Assembly (NCBI GenBank): GCA_963825525.1
Contig: CAWGTN010000004.1
Span: 1 to 64,000, forward strand
Direction of reading: 5' to 3'
Source: an uncultured Chloroflexia bacterium
GTDB taxonomy: Bacteria > Chloroflexota > Limnocylindria > QHBO01
DNA length: 64,000 nucleotides
Every line of letters starts with the position of its first letter. The stretch's first letter is position 1. The notes below the pieces were generated by a model. That model saw only the letters and a list, made by a program, of their open reading frames with translations. It had not been told where the DNA came from and ran no database searches. Positions 37,847 through 58,161 of this stretch are shown one piece after another. The position numbers were made by a program, and so were the translations under genes.

Positions 37847-39940
37847 GTGGGAGTCGGTCGGTCCCGAATCGCTGTCGCCCTGGCGGCCGGCATGATCGCG
37901 GCGGGAATCCCGGCTCCGTTGGTGGCCGAGGAGTCCGGCGCGCAGCGACTGCCGGGATCCACGGTCTCGGCCCTGACCATCGACCTCGACGGGAACGGTT
38001 CGGCGGAGGTCGTGCGGCTGCTCGACTCACCGGGTTCCGGCTTCACGGTGGAGGCATGGGACGTCGATGACGATGGGCGGTGGACGGTGCAGGCGGCCGT
38101 CTCGCTGCCGATCGATGCCGATGCCGGCAACTCGCATCCGCGAGACGAGATCGCGTCGCTGAGTTCGTTGACGGTCGGCGGGCGCGAGGAGCTGCTCGCG
38201 GTCACTGGGCGGGCTGATCCTGGCACGCAGCTCAGCGGCAGGTGCTGCCTGCGGATCCGGCACATCAGCCGTGACGATCAGGGCTTGGCAATGACCACGA
38301 TGCCGATTGAAGGGCTGGAGGTGGAGCAGCTCTTCACGCCCGACCTCGACGGTGATGGGACCGATGAGCTGGTCCTCGCCGTACCGCCGGATGAGGCCGG
38401 CCTCCAGCGCCTGGCGATCTATTCCTGGAGCGGCGCTGACTGGGTGCCTGTTGACGAGTTCGAGATGGCGGGATTCGGGGGATGGAGCATGACCGCGGGG
38501 GTGGAGGGAGGTCGCGACGCCGTGATTCTCGGTCCTGACCCGCTGGGCGACGTTTCACGCATCTCGCTTGTCGGTGGCGCCTTGCTCGTCGAGGCGGAGC
38601 GCATCGATCTCGGCGAGAGCTTCGACGGATGGCTTGCCGCCACCGCCGGCGACCGGCTGGTCCTCGTGTCGTCCGACGGCATCCGTATGGTGCAGTGGCC
38701 GTCGAACGCCCCACCCACGGTCGTCGCCCGGTACGCGACCTCGAGCTATCCGGCCGTCCAGGTGCTCGGTACCGGTCCCGAGATGCTCCTGCTCGTGATA
38801 GATCAGGGCCTACGTCCCTCGGCCGGTCCGCCCGAAGTGATGATTCTGGATGCCGGGCTCGACACGCTTGGGCAGGTCGAGCCGAACGCGTCGACCACCG
38901 CCGTGTGGGAAGTCCTGCGTCCCGATCTCAACTTCGGCGACTTCCAGCGCTACATCTTTCCGCACTTCGGACCCCTTCCCGGGCTCATCGATGGAAGGCA
39001 CGCGGCCGTGGCGAGCGGTGTCCTGGTTCAACCCATTGGCGCGGCCAAATTCGAGCAGCGCGACGTGAGCTCGTTCGTCGGCATGCAGCCGGTGGGCCGC
39101 GCCGGCCCTGACGACAGCTGGCTCGCGATGGGAGACGGGTTCTTCGGGACCGGGGACACGGTCTATCTCTTCCCCTTCGGCGCGATGCAGGCCGACGCGG
39201 GCCGGCTGGTCATCGCGCCGATCGACGACCTCCTGGATCCGGCCCCGACTCCCTTGACCGTCCGGCTGGTCGGCGGCGTTGAAGTCGCGCGGCGTGATGA
39301 TGTGCTCGAGGTGCTGGCGCCGTCGGATGGTATGTCCATCGAGATCGCGGCGCCCGTGGGTTCGCTGGTCATCTCGACGCAGGACAATCGCCTGCGCGGA
39401 GACGAGATCACCGGGTCGGAGGCCGTGATCGTCGACATTTCACCCCCTCCCGCGCGCGACGACGCGGCCGACATGCCCTTCGAGCGATGGCTTGCTGTCA
39501 TTGCCCCGGATGGTCGGAGCAGGTCGCTCCACGTGAAGGGGACATTCGTCCTGACCAGTCCGACCATTCGCGCGGCGGCGGCGACGGCGACCTTCAGCCT
39601 GCGTTCCACCATCCGAGGCCGCGTATCGTCCTGGGTCGACGTGGAGATCGATGGCGTTCCGGCGCCGGTCGCCGACGACGGCCGCTTCGCCGGCGAGGTC
39701 GACGCGCCGATCTGGCCACGCGACGTGACCATCGTGGCTCGCGATCGGCTGGGGAACGAGACGGTGACCCGACTCCAGATCGTCGGCTTCCTGGACTACC
39801 GCGGACTGCCCTGGGCCGCGATCGTCGGGGCGGCAATCGTTGCCTCCGGGGCGTTCCTGTTCGTGCGCACGCCGCGGCCGCGGCAACCTCAAACCATCGC
39901 CGCCGAGGATGGAACGCTCGAGGAGGTCGACGGCGATTGA
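37847..39940 (+). CDS. Surface protein with FG-GAP/VCBS-like repeats, Ig-like domain and C-terminal TM anchor (paralog 1)
   Basis: Signal peptide; DLDGNGSAE and DLDGDGTDEL; ARDRLGNE; DYRGLPW + TM. Confidence 0.78.
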   Translation: MGVGRSRIAVALAAGMIAAGIPAPLVAEESGAQRLPGSTVSALTIDLDGNGSAEVVRLLDSPGSGFTVEAWDVDDDGRWTVQAAVSLPIDADAGNSHPRDEIASLSSLTVGGREELLAVTGRADPGTQLSGRCCLRIRHISRDDQGLAMTTMPIEGLEVEQLFTPDLDGDGTDELVLAVPPDEAGLQRLAIYSWSGADWVPVDEFEMAGFGGWSMTAGVEGGRDAVILGPDPLGDVSRISLVGGALLVEAERIDLGESFDGWLAATAGDRLVLVSSDGIRMVQWPSNAPPTVVARYATSSYPAVQVLGTGPEMLLLVIDQGLRPSAGPPEVMILDAGLDTLGQVEPNASTTAVWEVLRPDLNFGDFQRYIFPHFGPLPGLIDGRHAAVASGVLVQPIGAAKFEQRDVSSFVGMQPVGRAGPDDSWLAMGDGFFGTGDTVYLFPFGAMQADAGRLVIAPIDDLLDPAPTPLTVRLVGGVEVARRDDVLEVLAPSDGMSIEIAAPVGSLVISTQDNRLRGDEITGSEAVIVDISPPPARDDAADMPFERWLAVIAPDGRSRSLHVKGTFVLTSPTIRAAAATATFSLRSTIRGRVSSWVDVEIDGVPAPVADDGRFAGEVDAPIWPRDVTIVARDRLGNETVTRLQIVGFLDYRGLPWAAIVGAAIVASGAFLFVRTPRPRQPQTIAAEDGTLEEVDGD

Positions 39941-40015
39941 GCGGGATGCGATACGCTGTACGCACGGCTCGTTCGTTCGACGGCCGAGCAGACAACCTCA
40001 CGAGGTGCCCTATTC

Positions 40016-40606
40016 ATGAGCAGCCGCATCGAAGAGCTGGACGCGATCGTCCGCCAGTTCGATCTCAACGAGCATCCCTTCTACACCGAATGGCGGGCGG
40101 GCACGCTCCCCGTCGAGCGCCTCTCCGAGTACGCCGATGAGTGGGCTCCCTTCATCGCAATCGTCGACAAGGGCTGGGATCGACTCGGGTACGCCGAGTA
40201 CGCGGCCGAGGAGCGTGAGCACGACGCCCTGTGGTCCCGCTTCCGCGCCGCCCTGGGCGCATCCGGCAGCATGGACCGTCCCCAGTCGAAGACCCTGCTG
40301 GCCGTGGGCCAGAACGCCTTCGCCGCGGCGCCCGAGTCGCTCGGCGCGCTGTACAGCTTCGAGGTTCAGCAGCCGAAGACGGCGTCGAGCAAGCTGGCCG
40401 GACTCCGCGAGCACTACGCCGGCACCGTTGACGCCGATGCGCAGCAGTACTTCGTCGAGCATGCGGTCGAGACCGACGAGCCCGCCATGCTTGCCGAGAT
40501 GATCGACAAGCTGTCCGACGGCGACTTCGCCCGCGCCAAGACGGCCTGCGCGCTGTTCAGTGCGGCCGCATGGGGCGCCCTGGACGGGGTCTACTTCACC
40601 GACTGA
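40016..40606 (+). CDS. CADD/PqqC/TenA-like heme-oxygenase-fold di-iron protein
   Basis: LNEHPFY..WRAGTL, EEREHDALW, GALYSFE.QQP..A..KLAGL..HY, YFVEH. Confidence 0.8.
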   Translation: MSSRIEELDAIVRQFDLNEHPFYTEWRAGTLPVERLSEYADEWAPFIAIVDKGWDRLGYAEYAAEEREHDALWSRFRAALGASGSMDRPQSKTLLAVGQNAFAAAPESLGALYSFEVQQPKTASSKLAGLREHYAGTVDADAQQYFVEHAVETDEPAMLAEMIDKLSDGDFARAKTACALFSAAAWGALDGVYFTD

Positions 40607-40610
40607 GCGG

Positions 40611-42563
40611 TCAGCGCTCCCGGGCCATCTCGACGAACGCATCGAGCGACGAAGGATCGGCCAGGGAGCCGCGCGAGGCGGCGACGTCGGGATCAGTGCC
40701 GGTGAGAATGCGCTTCACCGGCACTTCCAGCTTCTTGCCCGACAGCGTGCGAGGGATGGCCGGCACGGCGTGGATGTCATCGGGTGCGTGGCGCGGTGAC
40801 AGCGTCGTTCTGAGTTCCCCGATGATGCGGTCGCGCACGTCCGCATCCAGCCGCGCGCCGGGTTGGAGTGCCACGAACAGCACCAGCCGGTCCTCCGCGT
40901 CCAGGTGGACGACGAGAGAGTCGGCCACTTCCTCGATGGACTCCACGACCGCGTAGAACTCGGCGGTGCCGATCCTTACCCCGCCCCGATTGAGCGTGGC
41001 ATCCGACCGTCCGCTGATCACGCACGACCCGCGCTCGCTGAACGTGATCCAGTCGCCGTGGCGCCACACGCCGGGGAACTCGTCGAAGTAGGCGGCCCGA
41101 TACCGCTCTCGGTCGGGATCATTCCAGAAGGCCACCGGCATGGAGGGCATCGGCGCGGTGATCACGAGCTCGCCCTGCTGCCCGATCAGCGGTTCGCCGA
41201 CCTCGGAGTACGCCTCGACCGCGCAGCCGAGGTGCCGGCACGACAGCTCGCCCTCCCATACCGGAACCAGCGGTGACGCGCCGACGAAGGCCGTGCACAC
41301 ATCGGTGCCGCCCGAGACGGATTGGAGCTGCGCCGTGGGGGAGATGGCGTCGTACACATAGCGGAACCCCTCGACGGGCAACGGCGCGCCGGTCGACCCG
41401 ATGCCGCGCAGCCGCGACAGATCCGACGTGTCGCCGGGCTTGAGCCCCGCCTTGCGACAGGCCATGAGATACGGCGCGCTGGTGCCGAAGTAGGTGACGC
41501 GCTCCTCCTCGGCAAGGCGCCACAGGGCGCCGAGGTCGGGATGTGCCGGCGACCCGTCGTAGAGCACGATCGTGGCGCCGACTGCCAGCCCCGAGACCAG
41601 GTAGTTCCACATCATCCAACCGGTGGTACTGAACCAGAAGAACCGGTCCTGGCGGCCAAGATCGTGGTGGAGGGCGTGGATCTTGAGGTGCTCGAGCAGG
41701 ATGCCGCCGTGACCGTGAACGATCGGCTTCGGGAGACCGGTGGTTCCCGAGCTGTAGAGCACGAACAGCGGATGGTCGAACGGGACGGGATCGAATTCCA
41801 GCAGCCCCGGCTCGGCCGTCAGCTCGGACCAGCTGGTCGCATCCGGGATGCCCGGCGCGTCGGGCCGAAGATAGGGCAGCACGACGGTGGCGGTGAGGCT
41901 CGGCAGTGCCGCTCGAATCGCCGCCACCTCCGGTCCGCGGTCCACCGCCCGATCGCCGTAGCGGTAGCCGTCGATCGTGATCAGCACCTTCGGCTCGATC
42001 TGGCTGAGCCGATCGACGACGCTGCGGGTGCCGAACTCGGGAGCGCAGCTCGACCACAGGGCGCCGAGGGAGGCCGTGGCCAGCAACGCGATGGCGGCCT
42101 CCGGCACGTTGGGGAGGTAGCCGGCCACCCGGTCGCCGCGGCCGATGCCCAGTCGTTGCAGGCCGGCGCGCGCGCGTGCGACGCCATCGCGCAGCTCGTC
42201 CACGGTCAGGGTCGTCCGGTCGCGGGTCTGTGAGCGACCGATAACCACCACGTCGTCGCCGGCGCGGTCCTCGAGACGCAGGCAGTGCTCGGCCCAGTTC
42301 AGCCGCGCCCCCGGAAACCACGTCGCGCCGGGCATGCTCGCGTCGGCGAGGGCCGGTCCACGCTCGGCAGAGGAGCGGACGCCGAAGTGATCCCAGACCG
42401 ATGTCCAGAAGGCGCCGGGCTCATCCAGCGACCAGCGCAGCAGGGCGTCGTAGGAGTCGAAGCGCAGCTCGTGCGCATCCTCGAGCCAGCGCAGGTACGC
42501 GCCAACGCGGGTTCGCTCGCGCACGTCCGCGGGTGGGCTCCAGAGTACGCGTGGCTGAGTCAT
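40611..42563 (-). CDS. Acetoacetate--CoA ligase (acetoacetyl-CoA synthetase)
   Basis: YSSGTTGLPKPIVH, TTGWMMWN, SGGTD, GRSDATLNRGGVRIGT, SGKKLEVPVK. Confidence 0.92.
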   Translation of the reverse strand: MTQPRVLWSPPADVRERTRVGAYLRWLEDAHELRFDSYDALLRWSLDEPGAFWTSVWDHFGVRSSAERGPALADASMPGATWFPGARLNWAEHCLRLEDRAGDDVVVIGRSQTRDRTTLTVDELRDGVARARAGLQRLGIGRGDRVAGYLPNVPEAAIALLATASLGALWSSCAPEFGTRSVVDRLSQIEPKVLITIDGYRYGDRAVDRGPEVAAIRAALPSLTATVVLPYLRPDAPGIPDATSWSELTAEPGLLEFDPVPFDHPLFVLYSSGTTGLPKPIVHGHGGILLEHLKIHALHHDLGRQDRFFWFSTTGWMMWNYLVSGLAVGATIVLYDGSPAHPDLGALWRLAEEERVTYFGTSAPYLMACRKAGLKPGDTSDLSRLRGIGSTGAPLPVEGFRYVYDAISPTAQLQSVSGGTDVCTAFVGASPLVPVWEGELSCRHLGCAVEAYSEVGEPLIGQQGELVITAPMPSMPVAFWNDPDRERYRAAYFDEFPGVWRHGDWITFSERGSCVISGRSDATLNRGGVRIGTAEFYAVVESIEEVADSLVVHLDAEDRLVLFVALQPGARLDADVRDRIIGELRTTLSPRHAPDDIHAVPAIPRTLSGKKLEVPVKRILTGTDPDVAASRGSLADPSSLDAFVEMARER

Positions 42564-42605
42564 GTGTCCGATCATGCCAGAGCGGACGCTATCCTCACGT
42601 GACCC

Positions 42606-44729
42606 ATGCTCGCGTTCGCCACCGTCCTGGTGCTCCTGCTCGGCTCGCCGCTGTCCGGCGCCAGCGGACCCAATGCGGTCGCGGTCCTTCCCGAGGAGCC
42701 GGAGGCGGTCGTCCTCCCGGATGCGCCGATCCTGCAGACGATCGCCGCCGATGTCGACGGCGATGGCCAGCGCGAGGTCGTCCGCCTCGTGCGCGGGGCC
42801 GACGACGCGGTCTTCGTCGAGGTCTGGGCGCAGACCGGCGAAGCCTGGGCCCAGCGAGGCGATCCCGTGCTGGCGGTTCCGCCGTCACGTATCGGCGCTC
42901 GGATCGACCCGGTGTACCTCGCGACCCCCGTCCAGCTGCTCATCCGCCGCGTCGACGGCGCCGAACGGGTGACCGTGGCCAGCCAGCCTCACTTCGAGGA
43001 GATCGACGTGGGGCCGCCGTGTTGCCTGCAGCTCCACGACCTCGAGCTGCGCGATGGTGTGGTGACGCGACGCGAGGTGGCCGAGTCGAGCAATTTCAGC
43101 GACGCGCTGCTCGTCATCGACTTCGACGGCGACGGGACGGACGAGATCCTGTCGACCCACTCACTGACACCTCTCGGCGATCTCGAGTTTCCGATCGACG
43201 CCCGCGTCCACCGCTGGCAGGGCGATCGGTTCGGACGCCCGACCGTCACGAACCTGCCGATCGGTTCCGGCCACGCCCCCGTGTGGCTGGGCGACACCGA
43301 TGGGCTGCCCGGAGACGAAGCCGCGCTTCTCCCCTCACCACCAGGCCCGCTTGGCATCTACCGTCTGCGCCTCGTCGAGGGCGACATCGTCGTCGCCGAT
43401 GCGGGCGGGGTCGCAGCCGCACAGGCCGTGGCCGTGCCGCTGCACGATGGTCGCGGGATCGCGACGGTGAGCCCGGTGGCGGGGTTCGCCGTGGCAGCGT
43501 GGCCCGCGGGCCAGCCGATCGGCGAGCCCGAGGTACAATTGGGCGACGATGACCTGGAGATCGTGGGCGTCGTGTCGCTGGCGGGGGACCGCGTCGTGCT
43601 CCACGACCCCCGTACAGAAGCCGTTCGCCTGGTGGACCTGCCGGGCATCGGGAGCCCGCTGACAACGGCGGTGACGCGCAGCCCGGCGGCCGCGACGCTG
43701 GCCGAGACCGCCCTGGCTCCCTTCAGCGGCCTGATCCCCGGCGGATCGGTCGGCGGCGAGCCCGCGGTCATCCACCAGGGTCGGCTGGTGCCGTCGCCAT
43801 TCGGCTCGCCCTTCGATCCCACGTCGGTGGTTGCCAGCCTGGCGGGTGCAGAGCCGGTTGGCCTCGTGGGCCGTGGCCGGGAGACGCTGGTTCTCGATCA
43901 CGCATCGCCCGGCGTCACGTCCATCAGCAACGGCCGGGGTGGCGTGCTGCTCGCGCCGTCGGTTCGCCCGTCGGGCTGGACGAGCCTGGTGCCCCTCGAG
44001 ACGGTCGGGCAGCGCGAGCTGGACGACGGCGCGTTCGAGCCATCCTTGCGCGGTGCCCAGGCCATCGATGCGCGTGGCACCATCGCCGTCGGACCTGGCG
44101 GCTTCGTGGCCCAGGTCCAGGCGCCCGTCGGATCCCGCGTCTTCGTGGGCAATCCCGACCCATCGGTCATCGGGGTGCCGATCGTGGTTCCGGCCAGCGG
44201 CCGAGTGGATGCGCCGTTCGCTCCGCCCACGGTGGCGACCGCCAACCCGCGGTACCGGGCGACCCTGATCGTCCAGACGCCTGCAGGCCGAGGCTACCTC
44301 GCCACCTGGAACGTCCGTGTCCACGACCAGCCGCCGGAGCTCGAGGCGTCCAGCTTCACCGATCTCGGATCCGATCGAGTTGAAGTCCGCGGACGCGTCG
44401 CAACCGGCAGCTCGGTGCGGGTGGACGGCGAGGACGTGGCGGTCGATGACACCGGCCGGTTCAGCGCACGCGTCACGTTGCCGCCGTGGCCGACCGAGGT
44501 GGAGGTGATCGCGGACGACGGGTTCGGCAACATGGCCCGACGCACGGTCGTCGGCGTCGGCGTGTTCGACTATCGCGGACTTCCATGGGTGCCGATCACC
44601 GCGTTGCTGGTGGCGGCGGTCGGTGTGGTGCTCTTCCTGCGCGTGCCGCGGGCAATGCCGCTACCGCGACAGCCCGATGACGACGCGCGATACGAGGAGA
44701 TCGATCCCGAGCAGGGTGAGGAGCCCTAG
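42606..44729 (+). CDS. Surface protein with FG-GAP/VCBS-like repeats, Ig-like domain and C-terminal TM anchor (paralog 2)
   Basis: Signal peptide; DVDGDGQRE, DFDGDGTDEI, DTDGLPGDE; ADDGFGN; DYRGLPW + TM. Confidence 0.78.
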   Translation: MLAFATVLVLLLGSPLSGASGPNAVAVLPEEPEAVVLPDAPILQTIAADVDGDGQREVVRLVRGADDAVFVEVWAQTGEAWAQRGDPVLAVPPSRIGARIDPVYLATPVQLLIRRVDGAERVTVASQPHFEEIDVGPPCCLQLHDLELRDGVVTRREVAESSNFSDALLVIDFDGDGTDEILSTHSLTPLGDLEFPIDARVHRWQGDRFGRPTVTNLPIGSGHAPVWLGDTDGLPGDEAALLPSPPGPLGIYRLRLVEGDIVVADAGGVAAAQAVAVPLHDGRGIATVSPVAGFAVAAWPAGQPIGEPEVQLGDDDLEIVGVVSLAGDRVVLHDPRTEAVRLVDLPGIGSPLTTAVTRSPAAATLAETALAPFSGLIPGGSVGGEPAVIHQGRLVPSPFGSPFDPTSVVASLAGAEPVGLVGRGRETLVLDHASPGVTSISNGRGGVLLAPSVRPSGWTSLVPLETVGQRELDDGAFEPSLRGAQAIDARGTIAVGPGGFVAQVQAPVGSRVFVGNPDPSVIGVPIVVPASGRVDAPFAPPTVATANPRYRATLIVQTPAGRGYLATWNVRVHDQPPELEASSFTDLGSDRVEVRGRVATGSSVRVDGEDVAVDDTGRFSARVTLPPWPTEVEVIADDGFGNMARRTVVGVGVFDYRGLPWVPITALLVAAVGVVLFLRVPRAMPLPRQPDDDARYEEIDPEQGEEP

Positions 44730-47689
44730 CCGCCGCGCCGGCGGCGCGCAAGCCGCTCGGCGAGTGTTTCGCCGGCCGCAGGTTCCTCCCTAGGGGGCTC
44801 GGGGCGCGGTGCCTCGGCGGGCGGTGCCTCGGCGGGCGGGGGAGGCTGGGCCGCTTGAGGCGGTCTCGGGGCAGGTCGCGCGGGTGGTCGCGGCGCATCG
44901 GGAACGGCAGCCGTCTCCGCGGGTGGCGGAGCCACCGGGCGCTCGGAGCGACGGGCGCTCCGCTCACGTGCCGCACGCAGCTCGGACAGCCCGGCGACCG
45001 CCTCCGGCTCGGCTCGTCCGAGCCCCACGCGCTGCGCCGCCCACGATCGCGCGCGGCGCAGGTCGGACCGGGCCAGCGCCACGCGACGCACGCCGACGTC
45101 GAGTGGCACCAGCACGATGGCCAGCAGGAGCAGCCACGGCCAGATCGGAGTCGGGAAGGCATCCGCGACGATGTCGTGCGTCCACACCGCTGCCGGCGCG
45201 TCCTCGCCGTCCAGGGCGCGCTCCACGCCACGTCCGGCCTGGGCGAATGCGGTGAGCGCGGCGGTGTCGACGCCCAGCCGCCGATACTCCTCCGCTGCCG
45301 GCGACACGACGCCCAGCGTGCGGCTGGCGGCGTCAGTCCCGCTCTCGTCCTCGATGGTCTGGGCCACGCGCACCAGGTACGCTCCCTGGCCCTCCGCCCG
45401 CACGGTCCCGGCGTAGCGTCCCGGGCCGATCTGCTCCAGCACGGCCTGGGTCGGCTCGAGGTCGGGCGATACCAGTCGCAGGACGGTCCGATAGAAGTTC
45501 CTGGGGCCGGCATCGGCGTCGAACGAGGTCACCTCGACGTTCAGCTCGCCGCGTTCGCCGGGGCTGAACCGGACATCGATGCCCTCGGCGTCCTGGGGTG
45601 GCAGGGTCCACGCCACCAGCTGCGCGGTCAGGGTCCCGAATTCCGGCGTGCCGATCCACGGCGCGGCCCACAGCGGCCGGGTGTCCGAGGTCCACGCGAC
45701 CGCTCGGCCCAACCCGTACTGCCACTGCGCGAGCAGCGGATCCTCGCGCCCGGTCAACAGCGCCACGGTGGCGCTCCCCTTGGCTGTGGTCGCGTTGTAG
45801 CCGAGCAGCTGCGGCAGCCGGCCGGCGTCCAGCCCGTCGAGGATCTCCGACGAGGACGAGGGAATGGGCTGGAACGTCTCCTCCACGATCTGCTCGCCGG
45901 CGGTCCGGATCGTCTCGCGCAGGAAGATGTCGGGGATGGTTGTGGCGTCCGCGGCGTCGTAATACCGTCCGCCCGACTCTTCCGCCAGCCGGCGAAGGAT
46001 CTGGGCCGAGCCGCCGCCGGTGCCGATGGTCGACAGCGTGATCCCGGCCGCCCGCATGTCGGCGATGAGCTCGTCGTACGCCCCGTGCGTCGACCAGCCA
46101 TCGGTGATGAGGATGATGTGGCGCAGGGTGGCGGGGTTGTTGACGAGGTCGTCGTAGGCGGCCTTGAGCCCGGCATAGATGTTCGTATTGCCGTCGGCAG
46201 GGAAGCCGATGCCCGCGTCGAGCGCGCCGAAGTCGATCGGCGCGGTGCGTACCGCCCAGTGCGCGTTCTGATCGAACGCCACCACCCCGAGCTGGTCGGT
46301 GGGGGCCATTGCCTCGGCGGCGCGCAGGATCGCCTCCCGTGCGATGTCGACCTTCTCGAACCCGCGCTGGCCCGATGGATTCGCGTTGTCGCGCGAGTCG
46401 CCGGTGCAGTGGCAGTCGGCCATGCTGCCGGACTTGTCGACGACGGCCACCATCGCAACGTCGGGCGATCGCTCGCGGTCGCGCACCGTCATGTACACGG
46501 GGAGGGTCTCCTCGAGCGCCGTGCCAAGGTAGCCACCGGCCCCGAAGCTGTCGCGCCCGCCGAGCATGACCAGGCCTTTGCCGAGGTCGCGGACGTACAC
46601 CTGCAGGGTGGCCATCGTCGCCTCGCCCAGGTCGGAGGCCTCGACGTTGTCGAGCACCACGGTGTCGTAGCCGGCAAGGGTGGCCAGGCTGGATGGAACC
46701 CCGCCGGCCGGCACCACGGTGACCTCGAGGCTGCCGTCGCCCAGCGAGGCGATGAGGTCCGCGGCCCGCTGTGGATCATCGGTGGCCACCAGGATCTGCG
46801 GCTCACCCGTGACCAGCACGTACGCGTCCGCCGCATTGTTCTGTGCGAATCGATCGATGTCCGACTCGATGACGGCCCGGAAGACGTGGAATCCCGGCTC
46901 GGTGGCGGTCACCGAGAACGGGATGGTGGTGATGCCGGGCTCGAGTTGGAGCTCTCGGGTCGCGACGGTCGCCCCGTCCGCCAGGAGGCGCAGGGTGGCG
47001 TCGGTGGTGACCGTCGAGCGCAGCCGAGCCACCAGGTCGATCGTCTCACCGACGCGCGCCCCGGGTGGCGCGTCGAGTGCATCCATCAGGACCTCGGCCG
47101 CCGACTCGTCCGCGGGCACCACCACGTCGAAGCGAATCCCGCGCGCCGCGGCGGCGGCGATGGCGTCGTCGGCCTCGCCCGAGGTGTCGTTGCCGTCCGA
47201 CAGCAGGACCATGCGCTGCTGCGAGCCGGTCGGGAAGATCGCCGCCGCCAACCGGACCGCTGCCGCAACATCGGTCGCGCCGACAACCGGCTGGGAGGCG
47301 GGGTCGGACAGCTGGTCGAGCTCGGAGGGGAGCCGATCAACCAGGGCGTTGGCGCCGAACACCACGACCCCGGCCGTGTCGCCCTCGGGCTTCTGGCGGA
47401 CGCTGGCCCGTGCCCACTCGACGAGCTCGTCGCTCGTGGCATCGAGCATGGAGGCGGAAGCGTCCAGGAGGTACACCACGCTGAGCCGATCCGACGGCAG
47501 CGCCAGGCGGGTGCCTGCCAGCGCCAGCACGAGGGCCGAGACGAGCGTCAGTCGAATGACGAGCGAGGCAATACGCCGGCCCCTGGGCAGGGTCCGCGAT
47601 GCCCCGAGCCAGCCGACCGCCACGAGCAGAACGGCCGGCACGATCAGCCACAGCCAGATCGGATCGGAGAACGCCAGCGGGAGGCTCAT
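44726..47689 (-). CDS. Membrane protein with two VWA domains, Ig-like and glutamine-amidotransferase-like domains
   Basis: DASASM and DKSGSM MIDAS motifs, LLSDGN, GG..SFGAGGY, WQYGLGRAVAWTSD, N- and C-terminal TMs. Confidence 0.85.
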   Translation of the reverse strand: MSLPLAFSDPIWLWLIVPAVLLVAVGWLGASRTLPRGRRIASLVIRLTLVSALVLALAGTRLALPSDRLSVVYLLDASASMLDATSDELVEWARASVRQKPEGDTAGVVVFGANALVDRLPSELDQLSDPASQPVVGATDVAAAVRLAAAIFPTGSQQRMVLLSDGNDTSGEADDAIAAAAARGIRFDVVVPADESAAEVLMDALDAPPGARVGETIDLVARLRSTVTTDATLRLLADGATVATRELQLEPGITTIPFSVTATEPGFHVFRAVIESDIDRFAQNNAADAYVLVTGEPQILVATDDPQRAADLIASLGDGSLEVTVVPAGGVPSSLATLAGYDTVVLDNVEASDLGEATMATLQVYVRDLGKGLVMLGGRDSFGAGGYLGTALEETLPVYMTVRDRERSPDVAMVAVVDKSGSMADCHCTGDSRDNANPSGQRGFEKVDIAREAILRAAEAMAPTDQLGVVAFDQNAHWAVRTAPIDFGALDAGIGFPADGNTNIYAGLKAAYDDLVNNPATLRHIILITDGWSTHGAYDELIADMRAAGITLSTIGTGGGSAQILRRLAEESGGRYYDAADATTIPDIFLRETIRTAGEQIVEETFQPIPSSSSEILDGLDAGRLPQLLGYNATTAKGSATVALLTGREDPLLAQWQYGLGRAVAWTSDTRPLWAAPWIGTPEFGTLTAQLVAWTLPPQDAEGIDVRFSPGERGELNVEVTSFDADAGPRNFYRTVLRLVSPDLEPTQAVLEQIGPGRYAGTVRAEGQGAYLVRVAQTIEDESGTDAASRTLGVVSPAAEEYRRLGVDTAALTAFAQAGRGVERALDGEDAPAAVWTHDIVADAFPTPIWPWLLLLAIVLVPLDVGVRRVALARSDLRRARSWAAQRVGLGRAEPEAVAGLSELRAARERSARRSERPVAPPPAETAAVPDAPRPPARPAPRPPQAAQPPPPAEAPPAEAPRPEPPREEPAAGETLAERLARRRRGG

Positions 47690-49651
47690 CGGGATCGGCC
47701 CCCGAGCGGCTGCGGGCGTCCCCGGAAGGCGCGAGCCAGGCTGCGTCGGGTCGGGCGATGGAAGAGGAGCCACTCCACCGCCAGCAGGGCGAGCGCGGCG
47801 AGCGCCAGGGGCCACCACCACTCGGCGCGCGTCGGCTGAGCGTCGGGCGCGTCGGTGGAGCTGACCCGGCCCATCTCCATGATGCGCTGCGCGTCTCCGG
47901 GCAGGACGTCCGACTCATCGGTGCTGAACAGGTTGATGGCCGTCTGGCCCAGCGACGTTCCCTGGAGCTCCGGCTCCTCGCTCACCGCGCGGACCTCGCG
48001 CAGTCCCACGACCTGCGCTCCCGGGATCGTGGCCCGTCCCCCGATCACCGGGACCTCGAGCTCCTGGGTGCCCGCTCCCGGCAGCCCGCTGGCACCCACG
48101 GTCGATACCGAGACGCGGTCGATCCGTGGGTCGATGGTCACGCTCACCGACTCGCCGAGGCGCATCGACGAAGGAAGGATCCCCTCGGCCACCGGCAGCA
48201 GGTACTCGGTGATGTTGCTCATCAGCAGCGGGAAGGCGATCTGGAGGGGAAGGTCCGACTCCCCGAGCGCAAAGCCGATGACGCCGATCCGCGATCCCGT
48301 CGACGTTGCCCACCGCGACCATCGGGGTGCCGCCACTCGTCGAGACCACCGCGCGCATGCCATCGGCAAGTGCCAGATCCCTCGTGCGGCCGACGTGCAC
48401 GGTCGAGAGGTCGACGAAGCGCAGGAGCGGATCCTCGGGGTCGACCCGGTCGATGACCGGGTTGTCGATGCGCCCGTCCACGGTTCCGAATACGCCGTCG
48501 GAGTCCGGATCGATGATCAGCGTCGGCAGAGAAGGCGCCTCGGCCGGCACGCTGCCGTCGAACACCACCAGTCCGTAGGGCGTTCCGGCCTCTTCGGCAT
48601 CGGCGATGGCGTCCTCGTAGCCATCCTCGTCGACCGCGTACAGCTCGAGGCGGGGGAGCAGTGCCAGGGCGTTCTCGAGGAAGGTGTTGCCTCCACCGAC
48701 CAGGAGGGCCCGGATCGTTCCGTCGGCAGGCACCATGGCCAGTGCTCGATCGTCGGTGACCAGGGCATCGGAGCCCGCCAGCCGGGCCTCGATGATGCGG
48801 GCCGATCCCGGCACGGTGGCGACGAGCGCCTCCGAGCGCTGGCCGGCCGGAATCGTGAGATCGCGGGCGTCGACCAGGGAGCCGTCGGCGTACACCTCCA
48901 GCCTGCGGGTGGCCTCCGCCGCCGAGGGATTCGCGACGGCGACGAACAGGTCAAGCTGCGCACCGCCCGAGCGTCGGAGGGCGGAGAGCGCGGCAATCGC
49001 CTGGTTCGCGCCGGTCTCACCAACGCGCTCGACCAGCACTGGCGCGCCGACTCCGAGCTCGGGAAGGCGCTCGCTGGCCGCATCGGTCACCACGACCACC
49101 GTCGAGTCGGCATCGCGCTGGGCCAGCGCCGATGCCAGGGCGAACGCATCGGTCAGATCGCCGGGCAGCTGGGTGGCCGTGATGGCATCGATGGCCTCCA
49201 GTGCGGCGTTCGTGTCATCGGTCTCGCTGACCAGGACGTCCGCCGTGTCCGAGGCCGAGACCACGGTGACTCGGCCGCCGACCGGCAGGCGCTCCACGAC
49301 CGACCGTGCCCGTTCGCGCGCCAGCGCCATGCGATCCTCGTCGTCAGTCCGGGTGGCCATGGAGGCGCTGGTGTCGACGATGAGCACGACGTTGGCCGCC
49401 AGGTCCGACTCGACCGCGCTGAACGGGCGGGCCGCGGCGAGCACCACGATGGCGGCGATCAGCAGCTGGACCAGCAGCAGCCAGCTGAATCGCAGCCGCT
49501 GCCACGGCGCGTTGGCCTCCACGTCCCTGATGAGCTGCTGCCACAGGAAGGTGGATCCGACCGGGAGGTCACGGCGTCGGAGGCGCAGCATGTAGAACGC
49601 CACGATGATCGGCAGGCTGACGAGGCCCAGCAGCGCGAGGGGGACGATCAT
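47686..49651 (-). CDS. BatA-domain/VWA membrane protein (frameshift near 48290)
   Basis: BatA N-terminus P.ALLGL...Y.LRLRR...STFLW, DTSASM, shifted frame SDLPLQIAFP...EWWWPL..ALLAVEW. Confidence 0.85.
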
Positions 49652-50541
49652 CACTCCACCACGCGTCGCCGACGCAGGACGTCGAACAGGAGATCCGCGA
49701 GATCGAGGTCGGAGGGCACCGTCACGTAGGCGCCACCGCGGCGGCTGACGAACGACGAGATCTCGGCCTGCCACTCCGCCAGCCGCGTCCGATAGCGATC
49801 GACGAGGTCATCGTCGCCCGATACCTCGACCGACTGCGCCGTCTCGAGGTCCACCAGCCGGGCGTCCGGCGGCACGTTGGGCTCGAGCTCGTCAGGTGCC
49901 AGGAGATGGAGGACCGAGACCTGGCAGCGCGTTCCCGACAGGTCGCGAAGGGCCTCGAGGTATCCCGGGTCCATGAGGTCGCTGATGAGAATGAGCGGAC
50001 CGGTGCCCCGCATGCGCGAGGCATAGGCACGGGCGGCCGACGCCAGCCCGGTGAGGCGCTCGGGCCGTGGCTCGGACAGGAAGCGGAAGAGCTCGAGCGC
50101 TCGGCGCTTGCCGCGCATGGGGCGCATGCCGGTTGAGCCGCCGTCGCCCAGGAAGGCGACGCTCACCCGATCCATGCTGGCCAGGCCCAGGTAGGCCAGG
50201 GCCGCCGCGGCACGACGCGCGGCATCGAGCTTGTTGGGTTCGCCGTAGTCCATCGAGCGCGACGCGTCCACCAGGACGTGGACCGTCACGTCCTCCTCCT
50301 CGACGAAGAGCTTGACGAACAGCTTCTCGAGCCGGGCATAGGCATTCCAGTCGAGCTGGCGAAGGTCGTCGCCGGGGGCGTAGTTACGGTAGTCGGCGAA
50401 CTCGACGCTCTGGCCACGGCGGACGCTGCGACGCTCACCTTTCATGCGCCCCGCCGTCATGCGGCGCGACGCCAGCTCGAGCTGTTCGAGCCGTCGAAGG
50501 AATGTCTCGTCGAAGAACGGCGCGCGCGGCGAGGCGGTCAC
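49651..50541 (-). CDS. DUF58 (VWA-like) protein
   Basis: EFADYRNYAPGDDLRQLDWN, DASRSM, ISDL. Confidence 0.9.
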   Translation of the reverse strand: MTASPRAPFFDETFLRRLEQLELASRRMTAGRMKGERRSVRRGQSVEFADYRNYAPGDDLRQLDWNAYARLEKLFVKLFVEEEDVTVHVLVDASRSMDYGEPNKLDAARRAAAALAYLGLASMDRVSVAFLGDGGSTGMRPMRGKRRALELFRFLSEPRPERLTGLASAARAYASRMRGTGPLILISDLMDPGYLEALRDLSGTRCQVSVLHLLAPDELEPNVPPDARLVDLETAQSVEVSGDDDLVDRYRTRLAEWQAEISSFVSRRGGAYVTVPSDLDLADLLFDVLRRRRVVE

Positions 50542-50586
50542 CGGGCCGGGCCCGTCGGCGGGAATGTGAGGCGGCTCATCGGCCGC

Positions 50587-51609
50587 TTACTCGGCTGGTT
50601 CGGTGGGCGTCTCGGCGATGATCGCGCGCACGATGGAATCGGTGGTGATCCCCTCGGCCTCGCCCTCGAAGTTCAGGATCACCCGATGCCGAAGGGCCGG
50701 CGGGGCGACCGACTGGACGTCGCTGTACGAGACGTTGAAGCGACCGTCGAGCAGGGCGTTGATCTTCGCGCCGAGCACGATGGCCTGCGCACCGCGCGGT
50801 GAGCCGCCGTAGCGGACATACGACGTGACGATCTCCGGGACCCGCTCGGTTTCCGGATGCGTGGCGCGCAGTAGCCGAATCGCGTACGCCATGACGTGGG
50901 AGGCGATCGGTACATCTCGCGCCAGGCGCTGCATGGCGACGATATCGGCCCCGCTGGCGGCCTTGCCGACTTTCGGCTGGTCGACGCCGGTCGTGCGTTC
51001 CATGATCGCGATGAGGTCGTCCTCCGACGGGAAGGGCACGTCGATCTTGAAGAAGAAGCGGTCGAGCTGCGCTTCGGGCAGCGGATACGTCCCTTCCATC
51101 TCGAGCGGGTTCTGCGTCGCCAGCACGAAGAACGGCTCGGTCAGCGTGTATTGCTGCTTCGCGACGGTGACCCGATGCTCCTGCATCGCCTCGAGCAGCG
51201 CCGACTGCGTCTTCGGCGTCGCGCGGTTGATCTCGTCTGCCAGCACGAGATTGCTGAAGATCGGTCCCTGCTGGAAGCGGAACCGGCGTTCCCCGCCCTC
51301 CTCCACGATGATGTTCGTGCCCACGATGTCGGCCGGCATGAGGTCCGGGGTGAACTGGATGCGGCTGAACCCGAGGTCGAGAGCGTCGGCCATCGTCCGC
51401 ACCAGCATCGTCTTGCCCAGCCCCGGCACGCCTTCGAGCAGCGCGTGCGAACCGGCCAGCAGGCTGATGAGCGTCTGACGCACGAGCTGATGCTGCCCGA
51501 CGATGAACCCGCCGACTTCGGCCTCGATACGGGTCGCCATCTCGGCGAACTGCTCGGGCGCCAGCTCGGGGGTTGCCGCTGGGGCGGCGGGAGAGATCGG
51601 CTCGGTCAT
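50587..51609 (-). CDS. moxR: MoxR family AAA+ ATPase
   Basis: GVPGLGKT, RIQFTPDLMPAD, DEINRATPKTQSALLEAM, ATQNP, YPLPEAQLDRF. Confidence 0.95.
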   Translation of the reverse strand: MTEPISPAAPAATPELAPEQFAEMATRIEAEVGGFIVGQHQLVRQTLISLLAGSHALLEGVPGLGKTMLVRTMADALDLGFSRIQFTPDLMPADIVGTNIIVEEGGERRFRFQQGPIFSNLVLADEINRATPKTQSALLEAMQEHRVTVAKQQYTLTEPFFVLATQNPLEMEGTYPLPEAQLDRFFFKIDVPFPSEDDLIAIMERTTGVDQPKVGKAASGADIVAMQRLARDVPIASHVMAYAIRLLRATHPETERVPEIVTSYVRYGGSPRGAQAIVLGAKINALLDGRFNVSYSDVQSVAPPALRHRVILNFEGEAEGITTDSIVRAIIAETPTEPAE

Positions 51610-51621
51610 GGGGTCCTCTGC

Positions 51622-53460
51622 TCAGTCCGTGGGTTCGAGGCGGGAGAAGTAGTCGCGCACGAAGTCCTTGAGGGTGATCGGCACCTGCTGCCGATCCAGC
51701 GCGGACTGCGCGTAGTTGTCGAACAGGTCGAAGACCGATCGATACGGCACCACGCTGTCGTTGTTGAAGCCGACGCCTGAACCACTGCCGCTCTGATCGG
51801 TGCCGCCGTTGCCTCCGCTGCCGGCGATGAAGTCGGGGTCGCCGGGTCGCCCGAAGCGATCGAAGTCTGAGAGCACGCTGCCCTCACCGTCCGTCTCCGA
51901 GCCCTGGTTTCCGCTCGTGGGTCCGTTGAATCCGCCGGTTCGCAGGCCGCCTCCGGGAATGCGCCGCACGTTGGTACCGCCGCCCCCGCCCAGCTGGCCG
52001 CCGTTTCCCGGCTGGTTGCCGGGCTGACTGCCCGGCTGACTTCCGGGCTGGCCACCGGGCTGCCCACCCGGCTGGCCACCGGGTTGCCCACCGGGCTGGC
52101 CACCTGGTTGCCCACCGGGCTGACCGGAGCTGCCGGGTTGCCCCGAGCTGCCGGGTTGACCGGAGCCAGCTGGCTGACCTGAACCACCCGGCTGTCCCGA
52201 ACCGCCGGGTTGACCCGAGGAGCCCGGCTGACCGGACGAGCCGGGCTGGCCGGTGCTCGCGCCCGTTGGCTGTCCGGCGCGCGCCACCTGGCGTGCCCCA
52301 TCCTGGAGTGCCGATTGGGCTCGCGCCAGGTCGCGCTGGACCTGACGATCCCGCTGGGATTCACGGAGCGCGTCTGCGGCTCGCTCGAGGGCATCGGTTG
52401 CGGCCTGGCGATCCTCCTCGCTCTGGCTTCGCGCGGCCGTCTCGAGCGCATCCGCGGCCTCGGCAAGCGCGCTGGCGGCCGCCGGCTGGGATGCGGCCCC
52501 CGCCTGCGCGGCGCGGCGCATGGCATCGGCCCGCTCGGCGGCCTCCTCTGCCGAGAGCTCGTCCTGGCGCTCGGCGAGCTCTTCGAGGTCGCGAGCTGCC
52601 TCCTCCGGGTCACCCTCGGGGTTCGCGTCCGGGTCGTCGGTGGCTGCCTGGGAGACCGCCCTGGCCAGTTGGGTCAGCGCCGCATCCTGTTCGGCGGCCT
52701 GCGGGTCGGTCTGGCGCGCAAGCTCCTCCTGGACGGAGCCGATGCGGGCCAGGGTTGCCTCGCGATCGTCGCCGGATTCGCGGAGCTGCCGCGCAAGCTC
52801 CCGGAGCTCCCGTTCCAGCTGTTCCCGGCGCGGGTCGGGATTCTCGACGTTCTCCTCGCCAACCTCGTCGGCAATCTCCTCGACGCGCTCGGCCACGCGT
52901 TCCGCAGCTTCGCGTGCGATTCGCCGCTGTGCCAGCAGGTCATCCTGCGGATTCGGCCAGGCCACCAGGAGCAGCGTCATCACGAGCCCCACGCCGGCAA
53001 CGCTCAGTGGGGTTCGGGCGAACCGCGGTCGGAAGGCGCGGCGCAGGTCGATCTCGTTGAGGCGAGCGCGCGCATCGGCGAGCTGGCGGGCCTCGAGCGC
53101 GTCGCCCGTGTCCCGTTGAGCAAGCTCGAGCGCCGTCCCGAGTCGCTGGCGCATGCCCAGCTCCTCGTCCGCCCGTCGGGCCGCGTCCACGATCGAGGGA
53201 CGTCGGCGCCACGAGTCGACAAGCCAGGCGAGGACCGCAAGGCCGACCACGCCTGCCTGGATCGGCCGGGTGGCCTCGATCGGAAACACGCGCGAGATGA
53301 GCTGGACCAGCGCGATCGCCAGGACGGCGATGGCCGCCGCCACGAGGCCGGATCGAACGGATCGGCGCCACCACAACCGGCGCCGCAGGCGCCGCAGGCG
53401 GGCGAGCGCGTCGGGCCCGATGCGCTCGGCTACCGCTCGGTCGACGATTCGGTCATGCAT
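51622..53460 (-). CDS. Membrane-anchored coiled-coil protein with Gln/Pro/Gly-rich tract (DUF4175-like)
   Basis: 3 TMs, RLGTALE, long acidic coiled coil, QPGG repeats, C-terminal VPY...VP...VRDYF. Confidence 0.8.
   Translation of the reverse strand: MHDRIVDRAVAERIGPDALARLRRLRRRLWWRRSVRSGLVAAAIAVLAIALVQLISRVFPIEATRPIQAGVVGLAVLAWLVDSWRRRPSIVDAARRADEELGMRQRLGTALELAQRDTGDALEARQLADARARLNEIDLRRAFRPRFARTPLSVAGVGLVMTLLLVAWPNPQDDLLAQRRIAREAAERVAERVEEIADEVGEENVENPDPRREQLERELRELARQLRESGDDREATLARIGSVQEELARQTDPQAAEQDAALTQLARAVSQAATDDPDANPEGDPEEAARDLEELAERQDELSAEEAAERADAMRRAAQAGAASQPAAASALAEAADALETAARSQSEEDRQAATDALERAADALRESQRDRQVQRDLARAQSALQDGARQVARAGQPTGASTGQPGSSGQPGSSGQPGGSGQPGGSGQPAGSGQPGSSGQPGSSGQPGGQPGGQPGGQPGGQPGGQPGGQPGSQPGSQPGNQPGNGGQLGGGGGTNVRRIPGGGLRTGGFNGPTSGNQGSETDGEGSVLSDFDRFGRPGDPDFIAGSGGNGGTDQSGSGSGVGFNNDSVVPYRSVFDLFDNYAQSALDRQQVPITLKDFVRDYFSRLEPTD
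52005..52275 (-). repeat. Coding tandem repeats: (SGQPG[SG])n and (QPGG)n, 18-nt and 12-nt units
   Basis: About 18 QP[GA] units with synonymous codon variation. Confidence 0.85.
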
Positions 53461-54602
53461 CGGTCGGGTCCTCGGGTTTCGTCGCGAGCGGAGCCGGCGT
53501 CATCGGCGGCAGGTCCGCTGGGTGCGGCGATCATTCGTCGCCGGCGGAAGGCCCATCGCATGCCGGGTGGAACCACGAAGCGCGTGGCCCCCACGGTCAG
53601 GATGGCGGAGATCACGATGAAGGTGATCGTGATCCGCGGCCACCAGTAGCCGTTGGTTGGCGCCCCGGCGTTCCCGATCGGGTTGCCGAACTGATCGACC
53701 GGGCGGCAGTCGTTGCCGATGCAGTCCACGTTTCCCTCGAAGTTCGGCGCGCTGCCCCGCAGCTCGGCCAGCACGCTCGTGATGCCACCGAAGCCTCCCG
53801 GCTCGGTGTTGGCGACCACGTCGAGCATGGCGACGCCCGGGTTGATGTACATCAGCTGCTCCGGAGCTCGTTTCGCCTGCCCGAAGGCGACGCCGTTGTC
53901 CGTCTGGTTCGCGACGACCGTCCAGAAGATGAACAGCATCGTCGTGCCGAGGGTCAGCGCCAGCATGGTGATGAAGGTGAGGACCGTGGCCGCTTGCGTG
54001 CGCTTGAGGAGGGCCGAGAAGAACAGGCCCACGGCTCCCAGCAGCAGCGCCGTCGCCAGCAGCACGATCTGCTGACGCACGATGTCATCGACCGATGCGC
54101 CGCCGTACATGAGCACGATGGCGGTGATCGGCACCGCGGCCACGATCATGAGCACCACGAAGGCGAGGGCGGCCGCGAGCTTGCCGAGCACGATGGCCCC
54201 CGGACGCATCGGCGTGCTGATGAGGAGGTCCAGGGTCTGCTTCTCGCGCTCCAGGCTGATCTGGCCGGCAGTGAACGCCGGAGCGATGAATGAGACGAGG
54301 ATGAGCTGGAAGATCGAGAGGAGGGTGAAGATCGTCTGGCCGATGAGGGCGGAGGCGTTGGCCTGTCCTCCGAAGCCACCGAACCCGCCAGCGAAGCCGC
54401 GGGCGTTCGGCGCGATCACGACATAGACGCCATATGTGATGAGCGCCAGGATTGCCAGGTAGACGGTGAGCACGATGAACGCTCGGCGACCACGCATCCG
54501 CGAGCGGAGCTCCTTCACCATGATCGTGCCGACGGCGGATGCGAACTCGCGAGCGGCGCTGGCGCGCGGTGGCCGACTGAATGCCGTTCCCGCTGCCGTC
54601 AT
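53430..54602 (-). CDS. ABC-2 type transporter permease
   Basis: KELRSRMRGRRAF, ISLEREKQTLDLL, IVLGKL; ATG 54602 overlaps ATPase stop. Confidence 0.88.
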   Translation of the reverse strand: MTAAGTAFSRPPRASAAREFASAVGTIMVKELRSRMRGRRAFIVLTVYLAILALITYGVYVVIAPNARGFAGGFGGFGGQANASALIGQTIFTLLSIFQLILVSFIAPAFTAGQISLEREKQTLDLLISTPMRPGAIVLGKLAAALAFVVLMIVAAVPITAIVLMYGGASVDDIVRQQIVLLATALLLGAVGLFFSALLKRTQAATVLTFITMLALTLGTTMLFIFWTVVANQTDNGVAFGQAKRAPEQLMYINPGVAMLDVVANTEPGGFGGITSVLAELRGSAPNFEGNVDCIGNDCRPVDQFGNPIGNAGAPTNGYWWPRITITFIVISAILTVGATRFVVPPGMRWAFRRRRMIAAPSGPAADDAGSARDETRGPDRCMTESSTER

Positions 54603-58014: not shown

Positions 58015-58059
58015 CGTCCCCTCTGTGCGGTCGGGTCGCCAGGGTGAGCAGGTCACCAG

Positions 58060-58087
58060 TAGACGCCGGGACGGGCATTTGAGTTGC
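58060..58087 (-). promoter_or_regulatory. ECF sigma-type promoter of the MoxR/VWA/ABC operon
   Basis: GCAACT-N16-CGTCTA on minus strand, about 45 nt upstream of first ATG; TACACT at 58116-58121 may be a second promoter. Confidence 0.6.
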
Positions 58088-58161
58088 ACGTTGGCGGCTG
58101 CTCTCGACGCGGCGGAGTGTACGGGACGCGGACCGCCCGATGCTAGAGTGCGAATCAGCCC

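Follow-up and report, generated by a model that had tools for sequence, protein, structure and literature searches.

Does a conserved C-terminal tail, shared by two otherwise dissimilar surface proteins, deliver them to a dedicated processing enzyme, or does it hold them in the membrane? This question is raised by the first 64,000 nucleotides of contig CAWGTN010000004.1 (forward strand; assembly GCA_963825525.1, an uncultured Chloroflexia bacterium), which constitute the stretch of DNA analysed here and are called the window in the following. Two of its open reading frames, named pA and pB, encode proteins of about 700 residues. The first-pass annotation had described them as divergent FG-GAP surface proteins ending in a common tail, which consists of the motif DYRGLPW, a transmembrane helix, a short basic motif and an acidic end; its main idea had been a lineage-specific C-terminal sorting tag, its alternative a conserved transmembrane module for signalling or partner binding. 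We found that the tail is common to pA and pB by descent and that, among the matches listed, it occurs on no other protein architecture. It is fairly probable that it serves as a retained type I single-pass anchor, equipped with juxtamembrane motifs and with a short cytoplasmic motif to which a partner would dock.

Both open reading frames and every motif previously listed for them were recovered in their places. The features are given below; conservation values refer to an alignment of 85 family sequences, which were not selected by motif.

37847..39940, + strand: pA, 697 residues, GTG start, family paralog in a divergent clade; N-terminal hydrophobic signal-like segment (residues 8-26), propeller region, immunoglobulin (Ig)-like region, transmembrane segment and tail
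37982..38020, + strand: DLDGNGSAEVVRL in pA, first calcium-loop-like DxDGxG motif, with D columns that are invariant or at least 90% conserved
38243..38251, + strand: vicinal Cys pair of pA (CCL; Cys-Cys codons 38243-38248), the sole two cysteines of this protein
38342..38368, + strand: DLDGDGTDE in pA, second calcium-loop-like motif, with a weak FG-GAP match at residues 166-216
39794..39814, + strand: outer juxtamembrane motif DYRGLPW of pA
39815..39865, + strand: transmembrane segment of pA, residues 657-673 (hydropathy peak at residues 655-673), aligned with the modelled helix of pB
39860..39937, + strand: inner juxtamembrane motif FVRTPR of pA and cytoplasmic tail with the end EDGTLEEVDGD
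42606..44729, + strand: pB, 707 residues, placed as ortholog of the single-copy gene in related genera; signal peptide, beta-propeller (residues 33-466), two Ig-like domains (residues ~480-572 and 579-650), transmembrane helix (661-679) and disordered tail
42750..42788, + strand: DVDGDGQREVVRL in pB, first calcium-loop-like motif (D49 invariant; D51 and D53 at least 90%)
43020..43028, + strand: invariant vicinal Cys pair C139-C140 of pB (CCL; Cys-Cys codons 43020-43025)
43119..43145, + strand: DFDGDGTDE in pB (D172, D174, D176 and D179 invariant), within the FG-GAP_3 match at residues 172-233
44361..44549, + strand: membrane-proximal Ig-like domain of pB, Glucodextran_B-like, residues 586-648, containing WPTEVEVIADDGFGN (Pfam PF09136, 29.1 bits versus a cut-off of 27)
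44568..44588, + strand: outer juxtamembrane motif DYRGLPW of pB (D655, R657 and P660 invariant; Y656, L659 and W661 at least 90%)
44586..44642, + strand: transmembrane helix of pB, residues 661-679, a helix according to DSSP in the AlphaFold2 model (hydropathy peak at residues 662-680)
44634..44726, + strand: inner juxtamembrane motif FLRVPR of pB and cytoplasmic tail DDDARYEEIDPEQGEEP, modelled as disordered (R679, P681, E697 and E698 at least 90%)

The motif DxDGxGxxEVVRL is present as DLDGNGSAEVVRL in pA and as DVDGDGQREVVRL in pB, and the motif WPxxVxxxAxDxxGN as WPRDVTIVARDRLGN and WPTEVEVIADDGFGN, respectively. The C-terminal ends contain LEEVD in pA and YEEID in pB, following FVRTPR and FLRVPR.

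Descent of the two proteins and carriers of their tail

The similarity between pA and pB is far beyond chance: BLASTP aligned the C-terminal 200 residues with E = 7e-23 (34% identity) and 157 N-terminal residues with E = 2e-5, and tblastn aligned residues 27-700 of pB to pA at 26% identity. The earlier impression that the middles of the proteins are highly diverged was borne out, as the identity within windows of 50 residues is 12-20% for residues 101-500 versus 34-42% in the last 100 residues. These alignments show pA and pB to be full-length paralogs and not unrelated ectodomains carrying one tag; the tail is common to them because both arose by duplication of a single membrane protein specific to this lineage.

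Database searches yielded 102 homologs with pB as query and 36 with pA; with few exceptions, their length is 685-750 residues. Wherever they are named, they are labelled 'hypothetical protein', and their source records belong to Chloroflexota or Candidatus Limnocylindria; the assignment of the family to the class Limnocylindria is judged from the names of these records. Among the 121 genomes of the class that were searched, family matches were found in 33 of the 40 genomes of the bacterium's own taxonomic family, and the other four families contributed 3 of 80 genomes, with marginal matches (E about 1e-4, 60-80 residues). Based on these sequence matches, the family of ~700-residue proteins is nearly confined to one taxonomic family of Chloroflexota. 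In the literature library searched, no paper combines 'Limnocylindria' and 'FG-GAP'. We regard the family as unnamed, uncharacterised and lineage-restricted, and as belonging to the FG-GAP propeller kind of surface proteins. Note that the tallies given here and below for the family, the tail profile, sortase, the histidine kinase and the VWA protein include the unpublished genomes G120, G093, G084, G067, G122 and G128, whereas the alignments and the tree used none of their sequences.

Two copies, about 5 kb apart, exist in the present genome and in eight of nine other genomes of the genus, the ninth (G048) having one copy. One further genus is two-copy, which rests on the unpublished genome G093, and the remaining genera are single-copy. 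A FastTree phylogeny of 55 rows separated 17 pA-type rows (support 100), 17 pB-type rows (support 99) and 21 single-copy-type rows (support 84), and joined the pB-type to the single-copy-type with support 100; as the tree has no outgroup, it does not fix the age of the duplication. Because pB groups with the single-copy type, it is orthologous to the gene of the single-copy genera, with pA as a divergent duplicate. In G048 (L031, G048:C1:829400-848900), which is without a pA-type gene, the acyl-CoA dehydrogenase gene is directly followed by the gene of a haem-oxygenase-like protein; pA therefore occupies a variable slot.

Used as queries on their own, the tails of 70-75 residues retrieve each other in the 2.58-Mb genome with E = 3e-10 and 8e-8, the best match after these being at E = 0.07; the genome has exactly two copies of the tail, both on family members. 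A tail-only profile (A1), made from 25 tails of the window and of published genomes and comprising 55 positions from six residues before DYR onwards, matched 49 of 61 genomes of the taxonomic family. Strong matches (E < 1e-10) number at most two per genome and all lie within frames of a family gene. Of the weaker ones, a match with E = 4e-4 falls on the helix at the C-terminus of an anti-sigma-like protein and covers profile positions 12-39 only, and an extra match with E = 1e-5 in G136 belongs to a broken second family copy, to which residues 43-242, 384-520 and 529-679 of pB are colinear by tblastn. This copy (G136:C3:221950-222045, L049) is frameshifted. Two more broken copies were seen: at G087:C1:850583-850742 the tail is divided between two frames, and at G054:C7:33718-33792 a pB-type tail matches profile positions 1-25 only.

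Among 1.84 billion (1.84e9) representative proteins, A1 found 260 matches at E ≤ 1e-3. The carriers were judged from 150 of these, the remaining 110 being weaker. Seven of the 150 listed matches are already-known family members and 143 are new; 142 of the latter are colinear with a hidden Markov model (HMM) of the full-length family, 72 of them being at least 640 residues long and 70 shorter. As 66 of the 70 align from no more than 30 residues of their own first residue, they are N-terminal fragments. The other four have 57-170 unaligned N-terminal residues, yet share 90-345 residues of the family's C-terminal half. In two proteins, P0174 (518 residues) and P0150 (478 residues), this half (HMM positions ~350-695) is preceded by an N-terminal segment of another kind, which in P0174 starts with a prepilin-like hydrophobic N-terminus; this architecture may be a variant or a mis-assembly. 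The sole non-family match listed, P0139 (1777 residues), is a false positive: this multi-helix protein matches profile positions 13-39 in 16 stretches. A search of the PDB sequences with the tail profile gave two chance-level matches only (E = 0.53 and 6.3). Thus, the search for unrelated ectodomains bearing the tail, which had been suggested together with the sorting tag, returned full-length homologs of one family, among the matches listed.

Architecture and conservation

In the AlphaFold2 model of pB (predicted local distance difference test, pLDDT, 91.3; predicted template modelling score, pTM, 0.86), a signal-peptide helix (residues 2-12) precedes the propeller (33-466), the two Ig-like sandwiches (~480-572 and 579-650) and the helix at 661-679. 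The designation FG-GAP holds for pB, whose match to Pfam FG-GAP_3 (PF13517) scores 28.8 bits versus a cut-off of 26.9 and whose propeller is modelled with high confidence, but it could not be upheld by the same means for pA, which stays below the cut-off at 16.7 bits. In a VIA comparison, the propeller of pB matches many propellers with Z values from 19.0 to 13.2, among them the FG-GAP-type propellers 4up4 (PVL; Z 13.9) and 6mlt (Bap1; Z 13.4). A separate model of residues 470-707 (pLDDT 89.3) matches the tandem adhesin legs 7dm0 and 2yn3 and titin Z1Z2. The second Ig-like domain superimposes in VIA on domain B of glucodextranase (1ulv_A) with Z 10.2 and a root-mean-square deviation of 2.3 for 76 residues at 26% identity, in agreement with the Pfam match to PF09136. 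A Foldseek search with the whole model gave many multi-domain matches with TM-scores of only 0.11-0.31 and no specific relative; the nearest clusters of the ESM Atlas are named VCBS/FG-GAP, their low scores (0.75-0.77) making them a lead only. Two DxDGDG calcium-type loops and the Cys-Cys pair are invariant in the family. In 70 of 85 members, the vicinal pair represents the only cysteines; it lies in the propeller, in a segment of lower local confidence (pLDDT 61, residues 131-140), where it might form a vicinal disulfide or bind a metal.

Conservation in the family is highest over the last ~90 residues: its best-conserved windows of 50 residues begin at residues 615-617 and 650-651. In addition to the tail residues listed above, I664 and L676 are conserved to at least 90%. 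The tail follows the consensus [FL]DYRxLPW-[VI]PI-helix-L[FY]LRxPR-x(7-12)-[DG]D[AG]x[LF]EE[LIV][DE], after which mostly 1-5 residues remain; the column statistics of this consensus were made on motif-filtered tails and are therefore circular for D, R and P. The protein runs on for 25-30 residues past the helix and ends in the near-invariant acidic motif [LF]EE[LIV][DE], which lies 15-25 residues downstream of the basic cluster; the model is disordered in this segment (pLDDT 51-59). The information content of E697 and E698 (4.2 and 3.9 bits) equals that of DYR. A discarded signal needs nothing past its basic cluster; the acidic motif beyond it thus argues against a cleaved sorting signal. A near-invariant acidic motif within a segment modelled as disordered is what one expects of a short docking motif in a cytoplasmic tail that is retained.

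Basic juxtamembrane residues are cytoplasmic according to the positive-inside rule; therefore LRxPR and the tail should lie in the cytoplasm and the body of the protein outside. In the architecture that we favour, a signal peptide would be followed by an FG-GAP-like propeller with its two DxDGDG loops and vicinal Cys pair and by two Ig-like 'legs', all exposed outside. The C-terminal module would consist of DYRxLPW as outer interfacial motif, one helix, LRxPR as inner positive motif and a disordered, acidic-ended cytoplasmic tail of ~25 residues. Judged by its conservation, this module would be retained instead of being cleaved and would anchor the ectodomain in the cytoplasmic membrane, with the juxtamembrane and acidic motifs binding a conserved partner at or inside the membrane. 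Its function would resemble that of the end of integrin alpha subunits, which is made up of transmembrane helix, GFFKR and short tail. The earlier alternative of a conserved module for transmembrane signalling or partner binding is thus the one favoured by the conservation pattern.

Candidate partners and competing explanations

Downstream of pB, the window contains the following genes:

44726-58239, − strand: long operon encoding a DUF4350 protein (886 residues), an ABC ATPase-like stretch, an ABC-2 permease (570 residues), a 612-residue protein without Pfam match, a MoxR AAA_3 protein (340 residues), a DUF58 protein (296 residues), a BatA-N+VWA membrane protein (619 residues; 47915-49774) and a 1031-residue VWA+VWA+GATase1-like membrane protein (44726-47821)
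58162-60063, + strand: polytopic histidine kinase, with some five membrane helices at the N-terminus followed by GAF, HisKA and HATPase domains; a large outer domain is absent

At 44726-44729, pB (+) and the gene for the 1031-residue VWA protein (−) overlap in their stop codons, and this tight convergent junction was seen again in relatives. QueG directly follows the histidine kinase, and no response regulator lies beside the kinase. The gene order in relatives is acyl-CoA dehydrogenase, (haem-oxygenase-like), acetoacetyl-CoA-synthetase-like, family gene, (MoxR/DUF58/VWA/ABC-2 block on the other strand), (polytopic GAF histidine kinase), QueG and DUF1015. Between family gene and kinase, the ~13-kb MoxR/VWA block is present or absent as a unit. 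Wherever the VWA gene of the operon and the tail lie on one contig (18 genomes), they are convergent neighbours. In all 25 genomes that have the kinase and the family gene on one contig, the kinase gene shares locus and strand with the family gene; in 15 it follows the family gene directly (~100-250 bp downstream) and in 10 it lies behind the MoxR/VWA block. This shared order is possibly due to simple descent, because the genomes are all close kin. A complex prediction with two copies of pB residues 480-707 scored 0.00 against a mark of 0.42 and is no evidence for or against a homodimer.

With respect to processing enzymes, one sortase match was found in the genome, on contig C2 (C2:1549080-1549526), whereas the family genes are on C4. 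The same genome encodes a 299-residue protein (G000:C2:1454886-1455782; L052:384-1283, − strand) in which a signal peptide is followed by a long stalk of Ser/Pro/Thr/Glu repeats and by a C-terminal end of classical appearance, LPNTATG-helix-RRR; it is likely the substrate of the single sortase. Sortase is not co-distributed with the tail: it was matched in 57 of the 61 family genomes, including 11 of the 12 tail-less ones, and three tail-bearing genomes are without a match. Exosortase (PF09721) had 0 matches in the genome, which is 91.8% complete. A general rhomboid search gave two rhomboid-family matches; since rhomboids were found in 14 of 14 control genomes, their presence is uninformative. 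None of 15 loci inspected has a candidate processing enzyme adjoining the family gene. The NCBIfam models, including those of CTERM sorting domains, gave nothing above cut-off on whole proteins or tails. For TIGR01167 (LPXTG_anchor), pA scored 13.8 bits versus a cut-off of 15.9, restricted to the hydrophobic positions 11-30 of the model, and pB had no match. These negatives are weak, because the LPNTATG tail of the genome, serving as control, was missed as well (for TIGR01167 at E ≤ 1).

In the light of these data, it is highly improbable that the tail is a dedicated sorting signal, that is, that a membrane enzyme recognises DYRxLPW, cleaves there and attaches or releases the ectodomain. Its tripartite look of motif, helix and basic residues suits this explanation, as does the sub-threshold match of pA to TIGR01167, though only to its hydrophobic part, and there are known sorting systems with no more than one target or a few. 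Speaking against it, the tail is found on one family in one or two copies per genome, among the matches listed, a sortase is encoded almost irrespective of the tail, and neither an exosortase in the genome nor an adjoining enzyme in the 15 loci was detected; moreover, a conserved acidic motif follows 15-25 residues past the basic cluster, whereas the LPNTATG tail of the same genome ends three residues past its helix. A tail confined to one family and lacking a co-distributed enzyme is what the first-pass annotation itself had named as refuting its CTERM-like tag, and the co-occurrence of a membrane protease or transpeptidase, which would have spoken for such a tag, failed to appear, given the sortases of the tail-less relatives and the missing exosortase. 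Proteolysis is also the core of a further explanation, to which we assign a very small probability: regulated shedding or intramembrane cleavage by a rhomboid or site-2-type protease, by which the tail would be released as a signal. Type I topology suits rhomboid substrates, the genome has its two rhomboid-family matches, and the helix carries small residues and a proline near its outer end; against this stand the ubiquity of rhomboids in the control genomes and the fact that no protease gene is linked to the family gene in the loci inspected.

More weight is due to the explanation that the module is a plain membrane anchor without a partner, in which the interfacial Tyr, Arg and Trp residues, LRxPR and the acidic end owe their conservation solely to insertion, topology or stability, although we judge it to be unlikely, too. 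Single-pass anchors commonly have aromatic and basic residues at the ends of the helix, no partner was found among the neighbours checked, and the conservation of the helix has no clear helical periodicity. However, topology alone can hardly explain two near-invariant glutamates with flanking [LF] and [LIV] at a distance of 15-25 residues from the membrane, and conservation is higher in the module than in the folded ectodomain. If a partner exists, the histidine kinase might be considered: the helix and tail could dock the propeller ectodomain onto the downstream GAF kinase, giving an integrin-like co-receptor that provides a 'blind' kinase with an extracellular sensor. This quite unlikely scenario is kept alive because the kinase, with its five or so membrane helices, lacks a large outer domain.

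Several observations weigh against the retained anchor with a docking motif that we prefer. There is no co-distributed partner among the neighbours checked (kinase and MoxR/VWA protein, 61 family genomes). With the query used, the kinase escaped detection in 11 of the 49 tail-bearing genomes and was detected in 8 of the 12 that have no tail, and the VWA protein was found in only 22 of 49 tail-bearing and 7 of 12 tail-less genomes, these being lower bounds since a stricter first look was used; on these counts, both the histidine kinase and the MoxR/DUF58/VWA operon were rejected as obligate partners. Conservation along the transmembrane helix is without a clear 100-degree periodicity; its power peaks at 120 degrees, and a helix-packing face is therefore not demonstrated. 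The survey of carriers covers the 150 listed among the 260 representative matches. Finally, retention of the module is deduced from its conservation.

A new C-terminal sorting system would have been notable; the data argue against one. They leave a family of integrin-like single-pass membrane proteins, unnamed and confined to one lineage, in an uncultured group of Chloroflexota; its best-conserved part, the helix with the short acidic motif, points to an interaction at the inner face of the membrane. The tail peptide and the residue pairs E697/E698 and R679/P681 offer a handle for finding the partner. Beyond this case, a family-specific anchor can be separated from a sorting tag by the number of copies per genome, the diversity of carriers, the residues past the basic cluster and the co-distribution of an enzyme.

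Comparison with known systems

The LPXTG sorting signal is described in PMC4617865 as tripartite, consisting of a conserved motif, a hydrophobic helix and basic residues. The family resembles this layout in having a motif just outside a C-terminal hydrophobic helix, which is followed by basic residues. It differs in that all aligned tails contain DYR[GAQR]LPW, with neither an LPXTG-type pentapeptide nor Thr-Gly after LP, and in that the protein continues for 25-30 residues past the helix to a conserved acidic motif, whereas the LPNTATG protein of the genome ends with RRR, three residues past its helix. In addition, a single protein family bears the tail, and sortase is not co-distributed with it. 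The tails of the PEP-CTERM/exosortase and GlyGly-CTERM/rhombosortase systems have the same C-terminal order of motif, helix and basic cluster. PEP-CTERM and GlyGly-CTERM tags terminate many unrelated proteins per genome; in contrast, the family tail terminates one or two homologs per genome. Furthermore, family tails are without a PEP motif, the genome having no exosortase match, and without a Gly-Gly motif.

With bacterial FG-GAP/VCBS propellers (PF13517, PF01839; Bap1 and PVL-type lectins), the family shares the FG-GAP_3 match of pB, the propeller fold and the DxDxDG loops. Those proteins are secreted or otherwise anchored, whereas the module of transmembrane helix and acidic tail and the Cys-Cys pair are specific to the pA/pB family.

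Integrin alpha subunits consist of an FG-GAP propeller, Ig-like legs, a transmembrane helix, GFFKR and a short tail. The same order is seen in pB: signal peptide, DxDxDG propeller, Ig-like legs, transmembrane helix, basic juxtamembrane motif and short tail. Integrin chains are among the Foldseek matches of the whole model (E 1e-6 to 2e-5), but at low TM-scores (0.15-0.31). On the other hand, no Pfam match to the integrin leg (Integrin_alpha2) or cytoplasmic families was obtained at E ≤ 0.1, and propellers of the WD40 type and of EMC1 and IFT-A outscore integrin in VIA. The family has two legs versus three, which match generic Ig/Fn3-like (fibronectin type III) domains, LRxPR takes the place of GFFKR, and no partner resembling a beta subunit was identified. 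Integrin alpha pairs obligately with a VWA-like beta subunit; VWA proteins are encoded beside pB on the opposite strand, but they were found in just 22 of 49 tail-bearing genomes. By this comparison, the pA/pB family is not a member of the integrin alpha family; what it has in common with integrin alpha is the layout, from the propeller outside to the short tail within.

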